Virus record (IMG/VR): IMGVR_UViG_3300037742_000045 | Location: 1-24,889 of that record | Source of the DNA: a virus | Taxonomy: Duplodnaviria > Caudoviricetes | Direction: 5' to 3' (one strand) | Length of the DNA stretch: 24,889 nucleotides | Shown here: positions 1,085 through 7,765 of the stretch, piece after piece | Layout: every line of letters starts with the position of its first letter | How positions within the stretch are numbered: position 1 is the stretch's first letter | Notes under the pieces: generated by a model | Seen by the model: the letters and a program-made list of their open reading frames with translations, nothing else | What the model was told of the DNA's origin: nothing | The model's database searches: none | Made by a program: the position numbers and the translations under genes

Positions 1085-1121
1085 AAAAAAAAGACGCCAA
1101 TCTAACGAGAAGCGTCTTTTT
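1085..1121. terminator. bidirectional intrinsic terminator at the convergence of + genes and the - strand tRNA/late transcript
   Basis: AAAAAGACGC (1088-1097) / GCGTCTTTTT (1112-1121) inverted repeat with A-tract on the left and T-tract on the right. Confidence 0.8.
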
Positions 1122-1197
1122 AACGTAATAACCAAACTAAAACTATGAAATCGGATAGTGAAGATAATCAAAAATAATTACATACACAAAAAAATAG

Positions 1198-1279
1198 TAC
1201 CGAAGATGGGACTAGAACCCATAAAACTCTAGTTTCTAAGACTAGGCACTCTGCCAATTCGCTTTTATGTCACTTCGGT
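1198..1279 (-). tRNA. trnL: tRNA-Leu(TAG), atypical (expanded D region, short variable loop, T-loop TTCTAGT); possibly degenerate
   Basis: Acceptor ACCGAAG/CTTCGGT + A73; anticodon arm CTAGT-CTTAGAA-ACTAG; T arm ATGGG-TTCTAGT-CCCAT. Confidence 0.75.
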
Positions 1280-1284
1280 GATTG

Positions 1285-1360
1285 AGATAAGTATCGGAAT
1301 CGAACCGATATTAAATTCGTTTTGCAGACGAATACCTTTTCCAATATTGGTTAACTTATC
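1285..1360 (-). tRNA. trnC: tRNA-Cys(GCA)
   Basis: Acceptor GATAAGT/ACTTATC + U73 (Cys identity element); anticodon arm TTCGT-CTGCAAA-ACGAA; T arm ATCGG-TTCGATT-CCGAT. Confidence 0.92.
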
Positions 1361-1366
1361 ATTTTG

Positions 1367-1453
1367 CAGAGAACAAGGGAATCGAACCCTCACCACTTTT
1401 ACATGAAATCGATTAGCAGTCGATCGCAACAACCCAATATTTGCCTATTCTCT
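1367..1453 (-). tRNA. trnS: tRNA-Ser(GCT)
   Basis: Acceptor AGAGAAT/GTTCTCT + G73; anticodon arm ATCGA-CTGCTAA-TCGAT; long variable arm; T arm GAGGG-TTCGATT-CCCTT. Confidence 0.9.
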
Positions 1454-1458
1454 ATTTG

Positions 1459-1545
1459 TGGAGGCAGTAAGACTCGAACTCACACGCCATTACGGCTAAC
1501 TGTTTTCAAGACAGCAACCCATAGACCAACTTGGTTTATACCTCC
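1459..1545 (-). tRNA. trnS: tRNA-Ser(TGA)
   Basis: Acceptor GGAGGTA/TGCCTCC + A73; anticodon arm GCTGT-CTTGAAA-ACAGT; variable arm GCC-GTAAT-GGC; T arm GTGAG-TTCGAGT-CTTAC. Confidence 0.9.
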
Positions 1546-1549
1546 ATTG

Positions 1550-1624
1550 TACTCCTTATGTGATTCGAACACACACCTGTACAGATTTTAAGTCTGATGC
1601 CTCTACCGTTTGGGCTAAAGGAGT
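1550..1624 (-). tRNA. trnL: tRNA-Leu(TAA) with short variable loop
   Basis: Acceptor ACTCCTT/AAGGAGT + A73; D arm GCC..GGC; anticodon arm TCAGA-CTTAAAA-TCTGT; variable ACAGGT; T arm GTGTG-TTCGAAT-CACAT. Confidence 0.9.
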
Positions 1625-1627
1625 TTG

Positions 1628-1700
1628 TGGAAAAGGTTAGATTCGAACTAACAACGCTCAGCTCTTCAAACTGACGCTCTACCAATTTAGCTACATTTCC
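1628..1700 (-). tRNA. trnF: tRNA-Phe(GAA)
   Basis: Acceptor GGAAATG/CTTTTCC (one T-T mismatch) + A73; anticodon arm TCAGT-TTGAAGA-GCTGA; T arm GTTAG-TTCGAAT-CTAAC. Confidence 0.92.
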
Positions 1701-1705
1701 ATTTG

Positions 1706-1786
1706 TGCAAGCGGTAGGATTCGAACCTACATAGAATTAACGACGGGTTTACAATCCGCTGATTTCGCCCACTTACCATCACTCAC
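1706..1786 (-). tRNA. trnY: tRNA-Tyr(GTA), wobble-rich
   Basis: Acceptor GTGAGTG/CGCTTGC (3 G-U pairs) + A73; anticodon arm GCGGA-TTGTAAA-CCCGT; 12-nt variable region; T arm GTAGG-TTCGAAT-CCTAC. Confidence 0.82.
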
Positions 1787-1821
1787 AAAATAAAAAAATC
1801 CCACTCTTTCGAATAGGATTT
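1787..1821 (-). terminator. attenuator (intrinsic terminator) immediately 5' of the tRNA array
   Basis: Minus strand AAATCCTATTC-GAAA-GAGTGGGATTT-TTTTATTTT: 11-bp stem (2 G-U), GNRA loop, U tract ending 1 nt before tRNA-Tyr. Confidence 0.88.
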
Positions 1822-1862
1822 AATTTATATAATTTGAAATTATATCATACCAAATCCCTATC
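1812..1862 (-). promoter_or_regulatory. antiterminator hairpin, mutually exclusive with the 1787-1821 terminator
   Basis: GATAGGGATTTGGT (1862-1849, leader codons 17-21) pairs with ATTAAATCCTATT (1824-1812, terminator 5' arm) with one bulge, closing an inner perfect hairpin ATATAATT-TCA-AATTATAT (1845-1827). Confidence 0.78.
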
Positions 1863-1910
1863 ACCTAAAAGCGAATAACAAAATGATAAATATAAACTTG
1901 TTTTTTTCAT
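1845..1910 (-). CDS. tRNA-array leader (attenuator) peptide MKKTSLYLSFCYSLLGDRDLV
   Basis: ATG AAA AAA ACA AGT TTA TAT TTA TCA TTT TGT TAT TCG CTT TTA GGT GAT AGG GAT TTG GTA TGA; codons 5-15 match the anticodons of the downstream array; lies between promoter and terminator. Confidence 0.85.
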   Translation of the reverse strand: MKKTSLYLSFCYSLLGDRDLV

Positions 1911-1914
1911 ACTG

Positions 1915-1945
1915 CAATACTATAAAATATTTTTCAATCTACAAA
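1915..1945 (-). promoter_or_regulatory. Bacteroidota primary-sigma promoter for leader + tRNA array
   Basis: TTTG (1945-1942) - 19 nt - TAGTATTG (1922-1915), one mismatch to the TTTG-N19-21-TAnnTTTG consensus; predicted start at or near the leader ATG. Confidence 0.7.
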
Positions 1946-2409
1946 GAAAACTTTCGATAAATTTTCCAACACACAAACAAAATCACAATAATTAACGGAA
2001 ACCACCACCATTTTATTAATCCTTCTCGCTCACTTTGCTTTGCTTGGACAGTCTTTTTTGTCTGTTCCTGTTTTTTCGTGTTTGTATTTGTTTTGTCGGT
2101 TGTTTTTTCATTGATTAGTGTATTTGTATTGTTATCAGTTTTTAGTGCCTTATTTCGCTTTATTTTGCGCTGTGTGATTTTCTTGCCAGGTGTTTCAATA
2201 ATCGTTTCTTCAATCACTTCTTTAGTAGAATCGGTAAATACAATTCTAGCTTCTTCTTTTACATTAGAATCAATCACAACATCGTTTTTAATTTCTGTTG
2301 TTTCTTGTTTATTAGCTTCGGTTACTTCCTTTGTCTTTTCGACTTTACGGGCACCGCATCCGAAGCATAAAAATAATAGTAGTATTCCGATTGTGATTTC
2401 TTTTTTCAT
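1939..2409 (-). CDS. unimolecular spanin-like lipoprotein
   Basis: Lipoprotein signal (MKK..ILLLFLCFG-C), T/K/E-rich periplasmic linker, C-terminal TM helix (WWWFPLIIVILFVCW) then basic tail; downstream of endolysin. Confidence 0.75.
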   Translation of the reverse strand: MKKEITIGILLLFLCFGCGARKVEKTKEVTEANKQETTEIKNDVVIDSNVKEEARIVFTDSTKEVIEETIIETPGKKITQRKIKRNKALKTDNNTNTLINEKTTDKTNTNTKKQEQTKKTVQAKQSEREGLIKWWWFPLIIVILFVCWKIYRKFSL

Positions 2410-2771: not shown

Positions 2772-3332
2772 TCATGCAGTGAACATTTTTTTGTACTTTA
2801 AAAGTAGTGATTTTCTATGTTCTAAACCATTTGTTCCACCATTTATTTTTTTGGTAATGGTTAAAATATCATCTTTATCGGCCCATGTGTTTAAAAGATA
2901 GTTGTTATTCCAAAACCATAAAGCGGAAATCATCGCGTTGCTTTCTTCAAGTAATAGGTCGGGATTTGAAACGAAATCTATTCCTGTTTTTTTTGACAAT
3001 TTAATATAATTTTCTTTGCCAGTTATTTGGATAAATCCACGCCCTCGGTATCTCCATCCGTCCCCACTTTGCTCCGATCCGTTTCCCATACGATTGGCGT
3101 AAACTTTATTCGCAATGTTAATAGGTTTTCTTTGGTAAGATTCCGCACTTTGTTTATCCGGAAAGTATTTTTTAAATGTTGTTTGAAGTCCTATTGATGA
3201 ATAGTTAAGATTTTCAGAAATTGGCTTTAATCCGCTCTCGTGGTCAATCTGAGCAAAGAAGTGAGCCAATCTTAAAGGTGTATTAACTCCGTTATTTGAA
3301 AGTAATGTTTTGTATTTATTTGCTAGTTCCAT
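2772..3332 (-). CDS. endolysin, glycoside hydrolase family 19 (chitinase/lysozyme-like)
   Basis: AHFFAQIDHESG, ENLNYS, GDGWRYRGRGFIQITGKENY, TKKINGGTNGLEHR motifs. Confidence 0.93.
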   Translation of the reverse strand: MELANKYKTLLSNNGVNTPLRLAHFFAQIDHESGLKPISENLNYSSIGLQTTFKKYFPDKQSAESYQRKPINIANKVYANRMGNGSEQSGDGWRYRGRGFIQITGKENYIKLSKKTGIDFVSNPDLLLEESNAMISALWFWNNNYLLNTWADKDDILTITKKINGGTNGLEHRKSLLLKYKKMFTA

Positions 3333-3471
3333 TTCTTTTTTCTTTTATCCAATTTTTAAATAATTGCAATTCTTTTTCCGACCGTTGAATTGATTGTATC
3401 AAAATTTTACGGCTAACATCTATTTCTTCTTTTATGAATTCTATTTTCTGATTCGGTAAACACATATCCAT
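3316..3471 (-). CDS. small helical protein, 51 aa (MDMCLPNQKIEFIKEE...RNGTSK), absent from ORF track
   Basis: TAATG coupling to upstream stop; overlaps endolysin start. Confidence 0.65.
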   Translation of the reverse strand: MDMCLPNQKIEFIKEEIDVSRKILIQSIQRSEKELQLFKNWIKEKRNGTSK

Positions 3472-3719
3472 TATTTCTCCTTTCTCAACTCGATCATGTT
3501 TCTGACGAACTCATTATAAGAGTTGTTCACTTTTATTAAAGCTTCATTCGATGCTCTTAGTTCGGAAATATATTCTTTGTTTAATGTCTGCACATTTTTG
3601 TATAAAAAAACGATTACAGCCCCAAAAGCGAAAACAATAGCGATTAAAACACCTTCCGGCGTAGAATTATTTGTAGTCATCATCTTTTGTAAATCTACTG
3701 CGGTTTGTAAGCTAATCAT
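3471..3719 (-). CDS. holin/antiholin-like protein, single TM + coiled coil (start revised to 3719, 82 aa)
   Basis: ATG at 3719 overlaps upstream TGA (ATGA); TM GVLIAIVFAFGAVIVFLY followed by amphipathic helix. Confidence 0.65.
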   Translation of the reverse strand: MISLQTAVDLQKMMTTNNSTPEGVLIAIVFAFGAVIVFLYKNVQTLNKEYISELRASNEALIKVNNSYNEFVRNMIELRKEK

Positions 3720-4093
3720 AATGATAAACGTTTTTTTATATAAAAAACTAAGGCTAAGGTAATAATAACAGCGCAAATAACGATATTAAAAATCTTTGAA
3801 TATGTTACATAATTCACATGCGTGCCTATAATGTCCACAATATTTATTAATATCAAGCCTATAGGTGCATTTTTGGTAAACCAGCAATAATTGCCTTTGA
3901 AGTTGAAAAGATAAAACGCGATTAAATTTGAAATAATAGAACAGCCAATGGCATTTCCTAAAACAACATAATTATATACAACTCCTTTATAATCAACGTA
4001 GTTTGAAAATAGCGTAGCTAAAAGCATCAGGATAGGCACTAAATAAATGTACCTATCCAAAAATGCTTTTAAATATAACCTCAGCCCGTTCAT
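3716..4093 (-). CDS. multi-pass membrane protein (about 4 TM) in lysis region
   Basis: Four hydrophobic segments in 125 aa; translationally coupled to neighbours. Confidence 0.7.
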   Translation of the reverse strand: MNGLRLYLKAFLDRYIYLVPILMLLATLFSNYVDYKGVVYNYVVLGNAIGCSIISNLIAFYLFNFKGNYCWFTKNAPIGLILINIVDIIGTHVNYVTYSKIFNIVICAVIITLALVFYIKKRLSL

Positions 4094-4395
4094 TATGGTT
4101 TTGGGTTTTTTATGCCACCACCACCAATATCTTCCGGATCTGGTTCAGGGGGCGGCGGATCACCTTCTTTTGACACATAGGCCGAGCTTGCGTTTTCGGT
4201 CATGGTAGATATGACCTTGTCCTTAGCTGTACTCCCAGTACTAGCCCCAAAGAAATACTGCATAACACCACCAATGTATCCAATAAGCGCACCGAGCACC
4301 ATGTCTTTAATGTCTAAGAAAGATATTGCACACATTCCAAAGACTACCACGAAAACCGCCAGAAAAGTTTTTACTGTTAAATTACTTAATTTCAT
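4093..4395 (-). CDS. putative holin, 2 TM with Pro/Gly-rich tail
   Basis: Two hydrophobic helices followed by YFFGASTGSTAKD; first gene of lysis cassette. Confidence 0.65.
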   Translation of the reverse strand: MKLSNLTVKTFLAVFVVVFGMCAISFLDIKDMVLGALIGYIGGVMQYFFGASTGSTAKDKVISTMTENASSAYVSKEGDPPPPEPDPEDIGGGGIKNPKP

Positions 4396-4412: not shown

Positions 4413-5051
4413 TTATACCGCAAGCATTTCTGCCCTTTTCGTTTCTAATAGTGGCAATGTTGCAGCCGGTGACAAGCCCTCTACCATAGCAATAACAATA
4501 TCCGCTTTTTCAAAATCCCAATTTGAAACGTGTGAAGATGCACAGGCCCTAAAGTCTTCAATAAAGGAAATAAATATATCATATAAATTAGACTCCGATT
4601 CATGTTTGTGAATAATGAAATCAGATACTTTTTTCGCCCTGTTTCCAGTTGGCGTAAGTCCATGAGAAACAAGTAACGCATCTAATTCCTCGCCTGTTGG
4701 ATAATCTCGACTAAACTCATCAGTAATAGCTCTAAGCATCGTTGAATTTACTTTGTTGCCTTTAGATACATGATATTTTTCATCACGAAGTTTCTTTATG
4801 CTTTCCAAATCAATTCTACTTCCGTCTTTACCCATAGAAGATATCAATGCCCTTGTCATCAATGCGGTTACATTACTCATAATGCGTTCGGTGTAGATAG
4901 GTGTTTTTTCCGCCGCAATTTCTTCCGGCGTTGGTCCGGTAATTTCAATCACTTCATACGGAAAACCCTGCATCTCCACAGGCACTGATACCAAATCTGG
5001 GAACTCTGCATAAGCTCCATTTCCTAAATTTACTCTAATTTTTGTTGCCAT
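4413..5051 (-). CDS. tail fibre-associated protein (chaperone-like), paralog of 5481-6119
   Basis: 212 aa, colinear with 5481-6119 product; position downstream of fibre gene; function inferred. Confidence 0.6.
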   Translation of the reverse strand: MATKIRVNLGNGAYAEFPDLVSVPVEMQGFPYEVIEITGPTPEEIAAEKTPIYTERIMSNVTALMTRALISSMGKDGSRIDLESIKKLRDEKYHVSKGNKVNSTMLRAITDEFSRDYPTGEELDALLVSHGLTPTGNRAKKVSDFIIHKHESESNLYDIFISFIEDFRACASSHVSNWDFEKADIVIAMVEGLSPAATLPLLETKRAEMLAV

Positions 5052-5070: not shown

Positions 5071-5484
5071 TTAATTTTTCCAAGCACGTTGACCGAACCA
5101 TTTCACGGCCATATATCTTGTTTTGTTATCAATGTTTCTTAATGACGTTTTGCTTCTGCCGCTCAATTTTGAGGACCATATAAGCATTTCGCTATCAGCA
5201 AAATTACGGTTTCCAATTCTATTTTCATACAAATAATCGTGAATTAAGAACGAAAGTTCTGCGTCACTATCTGTCGGAAACAACCACCACAATAGGCGAG
5301 GAACTGAAGCAAGATCCCAAATATATCCTTTTGGGATCACAACAATATATTTATTTGATAATTCTATCTCTAAAGTCTCCAATAAAATATATTGATTGAT
5401 AGTATTTCTACCATAAACTCGTGATTTTTTAACCGGGTTTTCGCGTTTAAGCAAACCAATAATATTTTCAAGGGTAATTATCAT
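5071..5484 (-). CDS. DUF1353-family protein
   Basis: VIPKGYIWDLASVPRLLW...LIHDYLY...ADSEM...YMAVKWFG signature. Confidence 0.85.
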   Translation of the reverse strand: MIITLENIIGLLKRENPVKKSRVYGRNTINQYILLETLEIELSNKYIVVIPKGYIWDLASVPRLLWWLFPTDSDAELSFLIHDYLYENRIGNRNFADSEMLIWSSKLSGRSKTSLRNIDNKTRYMAVKWFGQRAWKN

Positions 5485-6119
5485 ACTGCTAACATTTCGG
5501 ATCTTAAATCGCTTAATTGTTGTTGTGAAATTTGAATAGGCAAATTCTCAGCCATAACGTTTATAATTTCCGCCTTGTCAAATTGCATTTTTTCAATATG
5601 GGTTAAAGCACAAGTCCTGAAATCTTCTATAAGTGAAATGAAAACACCGTAAATATTTGCCCCGTATTCATACCTAAAAACAATGAATTCGCAAAACTTT
5701 TGCAATTTCGTTCCATTGGGCGTGATTCCGTAAGAAACGAGTAGTGCGTCCAAATCTGATTCATTCGGGTAATCTCGGTTCATTTCGTCAGTAATAGTCT
5801 GAACCATCGACGCATTAACCGTTATGCCTTTCGCTACACTATACTTTTCCTGGTAAATCATTTTTTGACTTTCCAAATAACTGCGAGTGCCTTGCTTCCC
5901 CATAGAAGAGGATAAAGCTCTAGTTGTTAAAGAATTCACGTTTCTTGCTATCCTTTCAATATACAAAGGTGTTTTTTCTAACGCTATTTCCTCTAACGTA
6001 GGCTCAACTATTGGGACAACATCGTAAGGATATCCCTGCAATTCAACAGGGATTAATTCTGCATTTGGGAATTCGGCTGTAGCTCCATTACCCATGTTTA
6101 CTCTGACTTTATTTGCCAT
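5481..6119 (-). CDS. tail fibre-associated protein (chaperone-like), paralog of 4413-5051 (start revised to 6119)
   Basis: MANKVRVNMG aligns with MATKIRVNLG of paralog, giving identical 212-aa length; starts 2 nt after fibre stop. Confidence 0.6.
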   Translation of the reverse strand: MANKVRVNMGNGATAEFPNAELIPVELQGYPYDVVPIVEPTLEEIALEKTPLYIERIARNVNSLTTRALSSSMGKQGTRSYLESQKMIYQEKYSVAKGITVNASMVQTITDEMNRDYPNESDLDALLVSYGITPNGTKLQKFCEFIVFRYEYGANIYGVFISLIEDFRTCALTHIEKMQFDKAEIINVMAENLPIQISQQQLSDLRSEMLAV

Positions 6120-6121
6120 AA

Positions 6122-7765
6122 TTAAAAATATTTTAACCAATTAGGTTTAGCTGCCCAAAATCCTAGAGCCTGCAATCCGAAAATATCTGTATTTGAACCA
6201 GGTGTTGTCGCTAATATTGCACGAACCCCCGTTGAATTGTTTGCGCCTGGTGTATTGTATGCAGGGACGTTTGCCGTAATATCTTCATTGTACACAACCG
6301 TGCCGTCTATTTTTTTGACTTTGAAACGAACCCTTTTATTTACTGCGTCATTGTCAATTACTTCAATCATGCAAAGAAGCCATTCAGTTGCCGTTATAGC
6401 CTGTGATGTCCCAGTAGATACAGATGAAGCGTTTGCGCACTTAGCCTGTATTGTCGCCCCTGTAATATTAAACCATGCCCCTATTGTTGTATTTTCAGTC
6501 ACTCCCGAAATAGAAGCCGCGTGAGGCATTCCAACGATGGCCGATAAATTAGTCGTCACAATTGGGTTTATAATTCCAAAGAAAGTAGTCCCTTTAAAGA
6601 ATTGTGCAGGATAACTATTACCATCCGAAAATCTATATCCGCTATTATTAATCCCAGAAGCTGCAATAAACTTAACAAATGAATTACTATAAGGTGTTAT
6701 GTATGCATTTACAAAAGATTGTAAAGTACCGCTGTTTAATTGGCCCCCGGCAAAAGGATAAGCCCCTGATGCCGCTTGATTAAATTTAACCCATACGCCT
6801 ATATGTTGCAATATAGTGTCTGCGTGTTCAACTTCTAAAATATCACTTGAAACCAGAGCAGACTGGCCACTTCCAACCAATATGTTATTTGGAATGATTT
6901 CAAATATTTGCCCTGTATCCGTGATGTTATATTTTACAATTTCATTTTTTGCAATAGCAAAAGAAGCAACTGCGTTTACGTACGTCAAAAATCCAGCAAT
7001 ATCTTGGGTTGCTAAACTTGCAGAGGTTGTTGTCTTTACTGTTACAAATGCTTTGCTTACTTGATTCCCACTGCCTAAAAGACTATCCCCGTCTAGTGTT
7101 TTAATATTTGTACCTGAAACCAATAACGCCTGATAAGTAGTTGCTATATTGTCAATCAAATACTTAGCTTTCCCGAAAGCCTCTAAAATTGTATTTGAAG
7201 ATGTAAACGTTCCAGAAGCCGCAGACAATCCAGCCAAAACGGTTGCTAATATCGAAGCTCCTGAAGTTGTTTGATTGTTGTTAATCCATTTCTCCCAAAC
7301 ACCATCGTATCCGTTATAATGTAAATAATCGCCAACTTTCAAAGAAATATTTCCACTACCTAAATCAACTGTTTCATTTGCGACAGCCTGCCAATAATCA
7401 CCATTTTGACCTACTCCATCTACCAAAGTAATCGTAGCAGAATCATATTTCCCTTTGTAATGCGATGCCGTAGGGTCAAGAGGTGAAATGTTACTAAAGT
7501 CAAAAGCTGGGTAAAATAATTCTTCCAACCGCAACGAAAGCGCAGTTATTGTCACGAAAGTTTCCGGGGTTCCTGCGCCTGTATCGTCGTAAACGGTTAT
7601 ATTCGCTACATTGTAAACCCTTCTTTTCGATTGGCCTTGCTCAACGATTTGAAATGTTTCAATGTCTTCAGAAAAATAAAATTGCGACAATATAAATTCA
7701 CCCAGGTCGCTGTCAATATGCAGCCAGGTATAATTGCTCTTTTTTCTTATTTGTAATGTTGCCAT
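6122..7765 (-). CDS. tail fibre / receptor-binding protein
   Basis: YKGKYD..GQNGDYW..VGDYLHYNG..WEK and LVSGTNIKTLDGDSLLGSG fibre motifs; beta-rich C-terminal domain; synteny. Confidence 0.75.
   Translation of the reverse strand: MATLQIRKKSNYTWLHIDSDLGEFILSQFYFSEDIETFQIVEQGQSKRRVYNVANITVYDDTGAGTPETFVTITALSLRLEELFYPAFDFSNISPLDPTASHYKGKYDSATITLVDGVGQNGDYWQAVANETVDLGSGNISLKVGDYLHYNGYDGVWEKWINNNQTTSGASILATVLAGLSAASGTFTSSNTILEAFGKAKYLIDNIATTYQALLVSGTNIKTLDGDSLLGSGNQVSKAFVTVKTTTSASLATQDIAGFLTYVNAVASFAIAKNEIVKYNITDTGQIFEIIPNNILVGSGQSALVSSDILEVEHADTILQHIGVWVKFNQAASGAYPFAGGQLNSGTLQSFVNAYITPYSNSFVKFIAASGINNSGYRFSDGNSYPAQFFKGTTFFGIINPIVTTNLSAIVGMPHAASISGVTENTTIGAWFNITGATIQAKCANASSVSTGTSQAITATEWLLCMIEVIDNDAVNKRVRFKVKKIDGTVVYNEDITANVPAYNTPGANNSTGVRAILATTPGSNTDIFGLQALGFWAAKPNWLKYF

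Follow-up and report, generated by a model that had tools for sequence, protein, structure and literature searches.

Why would a phage place a short open reading frame (ORF) crowded with Ser, Leu, Tyr, Phe, and Cys codons, and an intrinsic terminator, directly in front of seven tRNA genes? This question is raised by a viral record of 24,889 bases (CheckV completeness 64%), the whole of which is hereafter called the window. Our answer, drawn from sequence comparisons and folding models, is that the element is very probably a ribosome-dependent transcription attenuator, such that the tRNA operon would be transcribed mainly when host translation of its codons is slow. The minus strand of the window carries terminase, portal, major head, and endolysin genes, and the order on this strand is the lysis block, a 156-aa ORF, the short ORF (1910-1845), the terminator, and the seven tRNA genes (Table 1). 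The stop codon of the 156-aa ORF (1939) falls inside the leader promoter. A tyrosine integrase domain is present in two of five related records and absent from the closest complete related record. The host of the window phage is likely to belong to Bacteroidota, because the promoter is of the type used there and because the same design is found in cultured phages described below.

According to the available portions of two reports, the consensus of the Bacteroidota promoter is TTTG/-33 and TAnnTTTG/-7 (PMC7366714), and the -7 box of this promoter type lies at -12 to -5 (PMC9723704). Because the same placement at this locus makes the A of the leader AUG the +1 position, we infer a leaderless transcript starting at 1910. 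The U-tract of the terminator is 12 nt upstream of tRNA-Tyr, and no promoter box of the form TAnn(T/A)TTG was found within 1909-1190; therefore, the tRNAs are expected to be made by read-through only. A sigma-70 promoter scan (3 found, 5.7 expected) used a model that is not suited to the Bacteroidota promoter type. All 11 control codons of the leader encode S, L, Y, F, or C, which are the amino acids of the seven downstream tRNAs. The operon anticodons read 10 of these 11 codons with standard wobble, and CTT requires four-way wobble of tRNA-Leu (TAG). In 11 window ORFs (5010 residues in total), the same five amino acids make up 24%, and they form runs of at most 7. Six of the tRNAs were confirmed by Rfam, and tRNA-Leu (TAG) is below the gathering score.

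Table 1. Features of the leader, the tRNA operon, and the upstream genes in the window
Feature	Position	Strand	Basis or remark
Endolysin (phrog_181), last of the structural/lysis block upstream	2772..3332	-	phrog match
156-aa ORF upstream of the leader	1939..2409	-	weak phrog_5885 match
-33 element TTTG, Bacteroidota sigma-A type promoter (predicted)	1942..1945	-	19 nt upstream of the -7 box
-7 element TAGTATTG, one mismatch to TAnnTTTG	1915..1922	-	-12..-5 relative to A of the leader ATG
Leader ORF MKKTSLYLSFCYSLLGDRDLV, 21 codons and TGA	1845..1910	-	translation
Control codons 5-15, AGT TTA TAT TTA TCA TTT TGT TAT TCG CTT TTA	1866..1898	-	sequence
1:2 protector (anti-antiterminator, predicted), control codons pair with the switch strand	1840..1895	-	folding
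Switch strand (segment 2) GGGAUUUGGU, may reach 1862	1849..1858	-	folding
8-bp A/U hairpin inside the antiterminator loop	1827..1845	-	-1.3 kcal/mol alone
Segment 3, shared by the antiterminator (1824-1815, paired with the switch) and the terminator (1821-1811, its 5' arm)	1811..1824	-	folding
Intrinsic terminator (3:4), 11-pair stem, GAAA loop, U-tract from 1798, abuts tRNA-Tyr	1787..1821	-	folding
tRNA-Tyr (GTA)	1705..1786	-	tRNA call and Rfam
tRNA-Phe (GAA)	1627..1700	-	tRNA call and Rfam
tRNA-Leu (TAA)	1549..1624	-	tRNA call and Rfam
tRNA-Ser (TGA)	1458..1545	-	tRNA call and Rfam
tRNA-Ser (GCT)	1366..1453	-	tRNA call and Rfam
tRNA-Cys (GCA)	1284..1360	-	tRNA call and Rfam
Atypical tRNA-Leu (TAG)	1197..1279	-	ARAGORN 1197-1263; 5' end 1279 from acceptor stem ACCGAAG/CTTCGGT
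Terminator-like hairpin closing the tRNA operon	1085..1121	-	-14.3 kcal/mol

The earlier note had claimed that the 5' arm of the terminator can pair either with its own 3' arm or with leader codons 17-21. All strings involved are in place on the minus strand: GATAGGGATTTGGT (1862-1849) corresponds to codons 17-21, the terminator is formed by AAATCCTATTC (1821-1811), the loop, and GAGTGGGATTT (1806-1796), and ATATAATT-TCA-AATTATAT occupies 1845-1827. Dinucleotide shuffles served as null models, and both folds are better than these: for the terminator region 1825-1790, z = -5.4 with 0 of 200 shuffles as good, and for the antiterminator region 1862-1811 (-12.4 kcal/mol), z = -3.1 with 1 of 200 as good. 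The predicted antiterminator helix pairs GGGAUUUGGU (1858-1849) with AUUAAAUCCU (1824-1815) and leaves GAUA (1862-1859) unpaired; at -11.4 kcal/mol (1858-1815), compared to -12.3 kcal/mol predicted for the terminator (1821-1796), its energy is close to that of the terminator. The 8-bp hairpin that was thought to nucleate the alternative fold is present, but its stability alone does not support nucleation, and it therefore appears to shorten the antiterminator loop instead. The note had further seen no 1:2 protector hairpin; this does not hold, since the region 1910-1826 is predicted to form a hairpin of -14.5 kcal/mol (core 1895-1840; z = -2.3, matched by 4 of 200 shuffles). In this hairpin, the switch strand is paired with the control codons, and its mean pairing is 0.78.

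Folding predicts three mutually exclusive pairings, the 1:2 protector, the 2:3 antiterminator, and the 3:4 terminator, and these suggest the following sequence of events. When the control codons are read fast, a ribosome at codon 15 or beyond would cover the switch, and the terminator would form. Conversely, when charged, intact tRNA for Ser, Leu, Tyr, Phe, or Cys is in short supply, a ribosome stalled at codons about 5-12 would open the protector and leave the switch free. The free switch would then capture the 5' arm of the terminator in the 2:3 pairing, allowing the polymerase to enter the tRNA genes, and the tRNA products would relieve the stall in the leader, which amounts to negative feedback.

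We represented a stalled ribosome by masking the RNA as far as 13 nt from the first base in the A site; the remainder was folded at equilibrium to three free RNA ends, which in the window are 1801 (two bases before the U-tract), 1799, and 1796. The model uses general values for the ribosome footprint and the 9-nt hybrid. With the free end at 1801, the terminator probability in the window is at most 0.24 for A-site codons 2-12, 0.65-0.69 for codons 13-14, and 0.97 for codon 15 and beyond. In the strictest setting, with the free end at 1796, switching was found for codons 6-9 only.

To compare the window with related loci, two routes were used. A search by tRNA similarity, without any assumption about a leader, yielded four loci (L118, phi10:1, phi4:1, and Gundel_1). 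In all four, an ATG follows 4 nt after a promoter box, and a short ORF, a terminator, and tRNAs are present. Pattern scans required only the promoter end with the ATG, a T5 run, and a tRNA T-loop; because the pattern fixed the promoter-ATG spacing, the T5 run, and the T-loop distance, these are not independent evidence in the survey, whereas ORF length was not part of the pattern. The scans gave at least 276 distinct matches in 376 sequences, at least 95 of them with a tRNA call within 330 nt. Among the matches listed, TA at -12/-11 is present in 70 of 95 tRNA-linked matches, compared to 26 of 181 others. An ORF of 14-33 codons is found, again among the matches listed, in 69 of the 70 tRNA-linked matches with TA, compared to 39 of 181 without a tRNA and 8 of 25 tRNA-linked matches without TA, and a hairpin precedes the U-tract in 69 of the same 70. 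We left out the 25 matches without TA, one of other ORF length, and L296 (no terminator), and added phi10:1 by hand. The final set of at least 69 loci forms 51 clusters at 80% identity, 46 of which have three or more called tRNAs. Judged by sequence, the putative attenuator design recurs in at least 51 non-redundant loci. Among 80 loci of endolysin relatives, two had any tRNA call and none had this leader type; the exact 26-nt leader start had 0 matches in viral contigs; and the leader pattern, which is strict, was found neither in 3 cellular genomes nor in a sample of 401 from the class to which G001 belongs.

Several of the loci encountered differ in detail. L137 and L242 have 15-codon leaders in which the switch strand lies just past the stop, within reach of the terminating ribosome. 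Eight loci (L141, L146, L160, L218, L219, L232, L235, and L249), detected in the metagenome scan only, among the matches listed, and on contigs that may be viral or cellular, form a further leader class, MKTTTIQ..., with Pro/Ile-TAT/Gln/Cys/Phe tRNAs. In the unrelated phages L120 and L121, a promoter-like stretch is followed immediately by two tRNAs (Ser-GCT and Phe-GAA), and this leader type is absent.

If the leader reads the supply of the tRNAs encoded behind it, its codons are expected to follow the content of the array. In the 46 loci, 346 of 506 codons at positions 5-15 (68%) are cognate to tRNAs of the same locus, whereas permutation gives 32.6% across arrays and 46.9% within the two main classes (0 of 100000 each, although the survey loci are related and permutation p-values overstate their independence). 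It should be noted that ARAGORN misses degenerate tRNAs and that some flanks are short, both of which work against a match. No cognate excess is seen outside the control zone, namely in codons 2-4 (18/138) and in the last five codons (45/230). Conversely, 193 of 215 tRNA amino-acid types are represented in the control zone of their own leader. The presence of single codons follows single tRNAs: a Trp codon is found in 11 of 12 loci with tRNA-Trp and in 3 of 34 without it, and the same numbers were obtained for Glu codons and tRNA-Glu (11/12 versus 3/34). Natural swaps point the same way; for example, Tyr12 is replaced by Asp in L118, the array of which contains tRNA-Asp, and L127 lacks both the Phe and Cys codons and the Phe and Cys tRNAs, while L316 and L321 combine the tRNA set of the window with SLYLSFCYSL. 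There is also evidence to the contrary: 160 of the 506 codons in the control zone are non-cognate, Thr and Asn codons often occur where the corresponding tRNA is absent (21/44 and 16/37), and Ser and Cys codons persist in L118, the array of which encodes neither a Ser nor a Cys tRNA. By eye, the array of L118, the closest relative (reverse strand, about 1330-1680), looks decayed, with a degenerate tRNA-Tyr, an added tRNA-Asp, and the two Ser and the Cys tRNAs lost; its last tRNA looks like the 5' part of Leu-TAA fused to the 3' end of Leu-TAG.

The codon match exists in the AUG frame only (z = 10.9, compared to -1.3 and 1.2 in the shifted frames), and the control zone is open in the AUG frame, with 20 and 38 stops in the two shifted frames. 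This bears on a model in which the tRNAs bind the codon run directly, as in a T-box, and no ribosome is involved. Codons complementary to anticodons do stand in a leader ahead of a terminator/antiterminator pair; however, the match confined to one open frame is not expected under direct binding, eleven adjacent codons could hardly all act as specifier loops at once, and the Rfam search of the window returned tRNA matches only, with no T-box. We therefore rejected a T-box riboswitch, the probability of which we regard as close to negligible.

The second prediction of the attenuator model is that the end of each leader pairs with the terminator arm of its own locus. Because an alignment of eight sequences showed that the switch register shifts between loci, pairing of own versus foreign arms was used rather than column-wise pair counts. 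The switch sequences of phi10:1, phi4:1, and Gundel_1 differ, yet each pairs with its own terminator arm (GAGAGGU/ACCUCUU, ACAGGAUC/GAUCCUGU, and AGCAGGAU/GUCCUGCU, respectively). Over the 51 loci, the mean own-arm duplex is -11.6 kcal/mol, compared to -7.9 kcal/mol for permuted arms (0 of 100000, z = -12), and the control duplex with DNA upstream of the promoter has a mean of -7.3 kcal/mol (48 loci). The signal is strong in aggregate; the own arm is ranked first by only 10 of 51 leaders, and z < -2 against base shuffles was obtained in 32 of 51. Both the codon test and the own-arm test hold at 75, 70, and 66% clustering (42, 36, and 33 loci). Relative to the stop, the start of the best duplex ranges from 45 nt upstream to 7 nt downstream, and at most loci it is 10-28 nt upstream. 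Cognate codons become scarcer about 13 nt upstream of the switch (at -5 codons in 34 of 46 loci, at -4 in 21, and at -2 in 10), and about 13 nt is the distance covered by a stalled ribosome. The protector was compared to codon-order shuffles, and the switch is paired upstream with a median of 0.71 versus 0.53, higher in 44 of 51 loci (p = 2e-7); in these folding models, the protector is under selection in the surveyed family. Covariation across homologs, which the earlier note had named as a check, thus favors a conserved antiterminator sharing the terminator 5' arm in own versus foreign arm tests over 51 loci, and, together with the stall model, the outcome of which depends on the assumed free RNA end, it supports the proposal that a stalled ribosome would give read-through and a ribosome at the stop would permit termination.

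These comparisons also bear on the simpler possibility of a constitutive, leaky terminator that ends the late/lysis transcript or damps the tRNAs, with an ORF that is incidental or acts independently through its peptide. In its favor, no other single hairpin is as stable as the terminator, which prevails in 1862-1787 at full equilibrium, and no terminator was called between the upstream 156-aa ORF and the leader. Such a terminator, however, does not account for codons that match in frame and change as tRNAs are gained and lost, or for leaders of unrelated sequence that are complementary to their own arms; moreover, the peptides encoded at the leader position are varied, which argues both against chance and against a conserved peptide. 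We consider it very unlikely. A single conserved peptide function was rejected as well, given that the peptides at this position vary among loci.

When the stall model was applied to the family, 46, 26, or 12 of the 51 loci switched at free ends of +0, +2, and +5 bases. Foreign chimeras and shuffled leaders served as controls. In the first setting, own leaders were antiterminated at stall in 46 of 51 loci, compared to 45% of 612 foreign chimeras and 26% of 612 shuffles; in the second setting, the values were 25 of 51, 10% of 612, and 3% of 612. The phi10:1 locus does not switch in this model (terminator 0.95 when stalled). Since own leaders outperform foreign and shuffled ones, the switch appears specific, and its strength is likely to depend on kinetics beyond equilibrium folding.

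The same model addresses what happens without any ribosome. The earlier note, having seen no protector, had suggested that the untranslated default may be ON, so that general translation shut-off would induce the tRNAs and any ribosome would serve as the signal, codon identity being secondary. With the free end at 1801, naked window RNA is indeed antiterminated (terminator probability 0.01), aided by an extra 1:4 pairing, and 18 of 51 naked loci do not exceed 0.5 at that setting; in addition, the 2:3 fold (-17.0 kcal/mol) is more stable than the 1:2 fold (-14.5 kcal/mol) once segment 3 is out. However, two more free bases bring termination in the naked window RNA to 0.86 (0.95 at 1796), and naked RNA terminates (>0.5) in 33, 50, and 50 of the 51 loci across the three settings. 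Furthermore, a protector is present in the window and selected in the family, and an any-ribosome switch leaves the tracking of tRNA content by codons unexplained. As the main mode of action it is unlikely; at the window locus, the absence of translation may act as a secondary input. For the surveyed family, the models lean toward an untranslated default of OFF.

Outside the pattern scans, we inspected all tRNA blocks in fetched stretches of three cultured phages, phi4:1, Calle_1, and phi38:1; Calle_1 and phi38:1 are nearly identical there, and two of the phi4:1 leaders had already been found. In each phage, all three blocks have a leader, with 9-11 of 11 codons cognate, and all nine blocks have a terminator-like hairpin with a U-tract. 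The block sets are P/E/Q/H/L/R, Y/S/N/W/F/C, and K/I/G/M/D/T/V/R(/A), the last of which has a 5' untranslated stretch. Blocks are largely sorted by the first codon letter (U, C, or A/G) in phi4:1 (L496), Calle_1 (L495), phi38:1 (L497), and the survey loci. In the 46 loci, which are related to one another, 162 of 242 tRNAs share the commonest first codon letter of their block, compared to 130 +/- 4 in shuffled data.

In the GenBank records of L122/L496 (phi4:1) and L497 (phi38:1), the leader ORFs are unannotated, and several tRNAs are missed or called small hypothetical CDS (for example, Phi4:1_gp076 over tRNA-Ser-TGA). In Gundel_1 (L123), an HNH endonuclease gene (3422-4120) is located between the second leader/terminator (MKTNNLHIQQNNLPV...) and the Pro/Gln/Met/Asn/Leu tRNAs; being downstream of that terminator, it would also fall under the attenuator.

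As for the signal, the likeliest trigger of the proposed attenuator is loss of functional host tRNA in infection rather than amino-acid hunger, because extra tRNA would cure the former and not the latter. Another candidate trigger is that tRNAs for UNN codons are under-modified at position 37. Tentatively, and with slightly less than even confidence, we suggest that these phages split their tRNA operons by first codon letter (UNN, CNN, and purine-NN), each behind a leaderless codon-checklist attenuator, as a class-specific, on-demand counter-defence. If so, the leaders would let the phage detect the class of host tRNA that is cleaved or under-modified and transcribe the matching replacements alone, and the leader sequence would show which tRNAs the host attacks.

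The nearest known systems are the leader-peptide attenuators of amino-acid operons, in particular multivalent ones (trpL, hisL, thrL, and the ilvGMEDA leader) and the pheST attenuator. In our models, the window element works like a multivalent leader-peptide attenuator, sharing with these systems the short ORF of control codons, the 1:2/2:3/3:4 pairings, the intrinsic terminator, and ribosome position as the switch. It lies outside the amino-acid operon families (trp, his, thr, ilv, and pheST) because the genes downstream are seven tRNAs, so that the adaptor would be restored rather than the amino acid or the synthetase. It further differs in being viral, in covering five amino acids in 11 codons, in having a probably leaderless transcript, and in that the codon set changes with the tRNA set between loci.

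Partial analogies are found in the available text of several reports. The polycysteine sORF attenuators of mycobacteria are likewise leaderless short ORFs that sense ribosome stalling, but they respond to cysteine and control translation initiation of the following gene, whereas the window has a terminator before tRNAs (10.1101/834739). The Anabaena trn operon is likewise a silent, mobile tRNA array that is induced when translation is impaired; unlike the window, it is controlled by the protein repressor TrcR at the promoter and not in a codon-specific manner (PMC8421152, PMC10272220), and 'attenuat', 'leader', and 'terminator' have 0 occurrences in the main text of PMC8421152. Putative leader-peptide attenuators with the same promoter type are described for Flavobacterium psychrophilum, suggesting that this host group plausibly supports ribosome-coupled attenuation, although these serve chromosomal amino-acid biosynthesis operons rather than tRNAs (PMC9723704). 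The likely trigger in the window is suggested by phage tRNAs that replace host tRNAs destroyed by defence systems (PMC11555353, PMC10264068), such as the tRNA-Tyr of T5-like phages, which counters the PtuAB of retron-Eco7 (PMC11555353). Expression of the T5-like tRNAs is credited to a strong promoter, and the portion of that report available to us describes no sensing device and has 0 occurrences of 'attenuat' (PMC11555353). In the literature searched, judged by titles and abstract openings and including few subscription papers, no description of attenuation of tRNA genes was found. The proposed element would extend attenuation from amino-acid supply to tRNA supply. Why phages carry tRNAs, for codon compensation or for replacement of host-destroyed tRNAs, is a long-standing question, and a sensor makes it testable, since constitutive compensation needs none, whereas on-demand replacement does. 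The design is present in cultured phage-host pairs (Cellulophaga phages phi4:1, phi10:1, phi38:1, and Calle_1, and Tenacibaculum phage Gundel_1), and the leaders are ready-made reporters of the tRNAs that fail during infection.

Several features of the window genes are worth recording. Both tRNA-Leu genes (1549-1624 and 1197-1279) are without a long variable arm, and the survey median is 75 nt; in tRNA-Leu (TAG), the D region is also enlarged and the T-loop altered. The tRNA-Phe (1627-1700) has G37 (loop UU GAA GA), where the usual base is A. G37 is present in 8 of 19 Phe loops of the survey, and 8 of 15 Leu-TAA loops are UU UAA GC; these loops possibly represent an escape from nucleases or from the need for A37 modification. 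In the tail/lysis region, the ORFs 4413-5051 and 5481-6140 (212 and 219 aa), with a 137-aa ORF between them, are alike at both ends and look like the result of a gene duplication.
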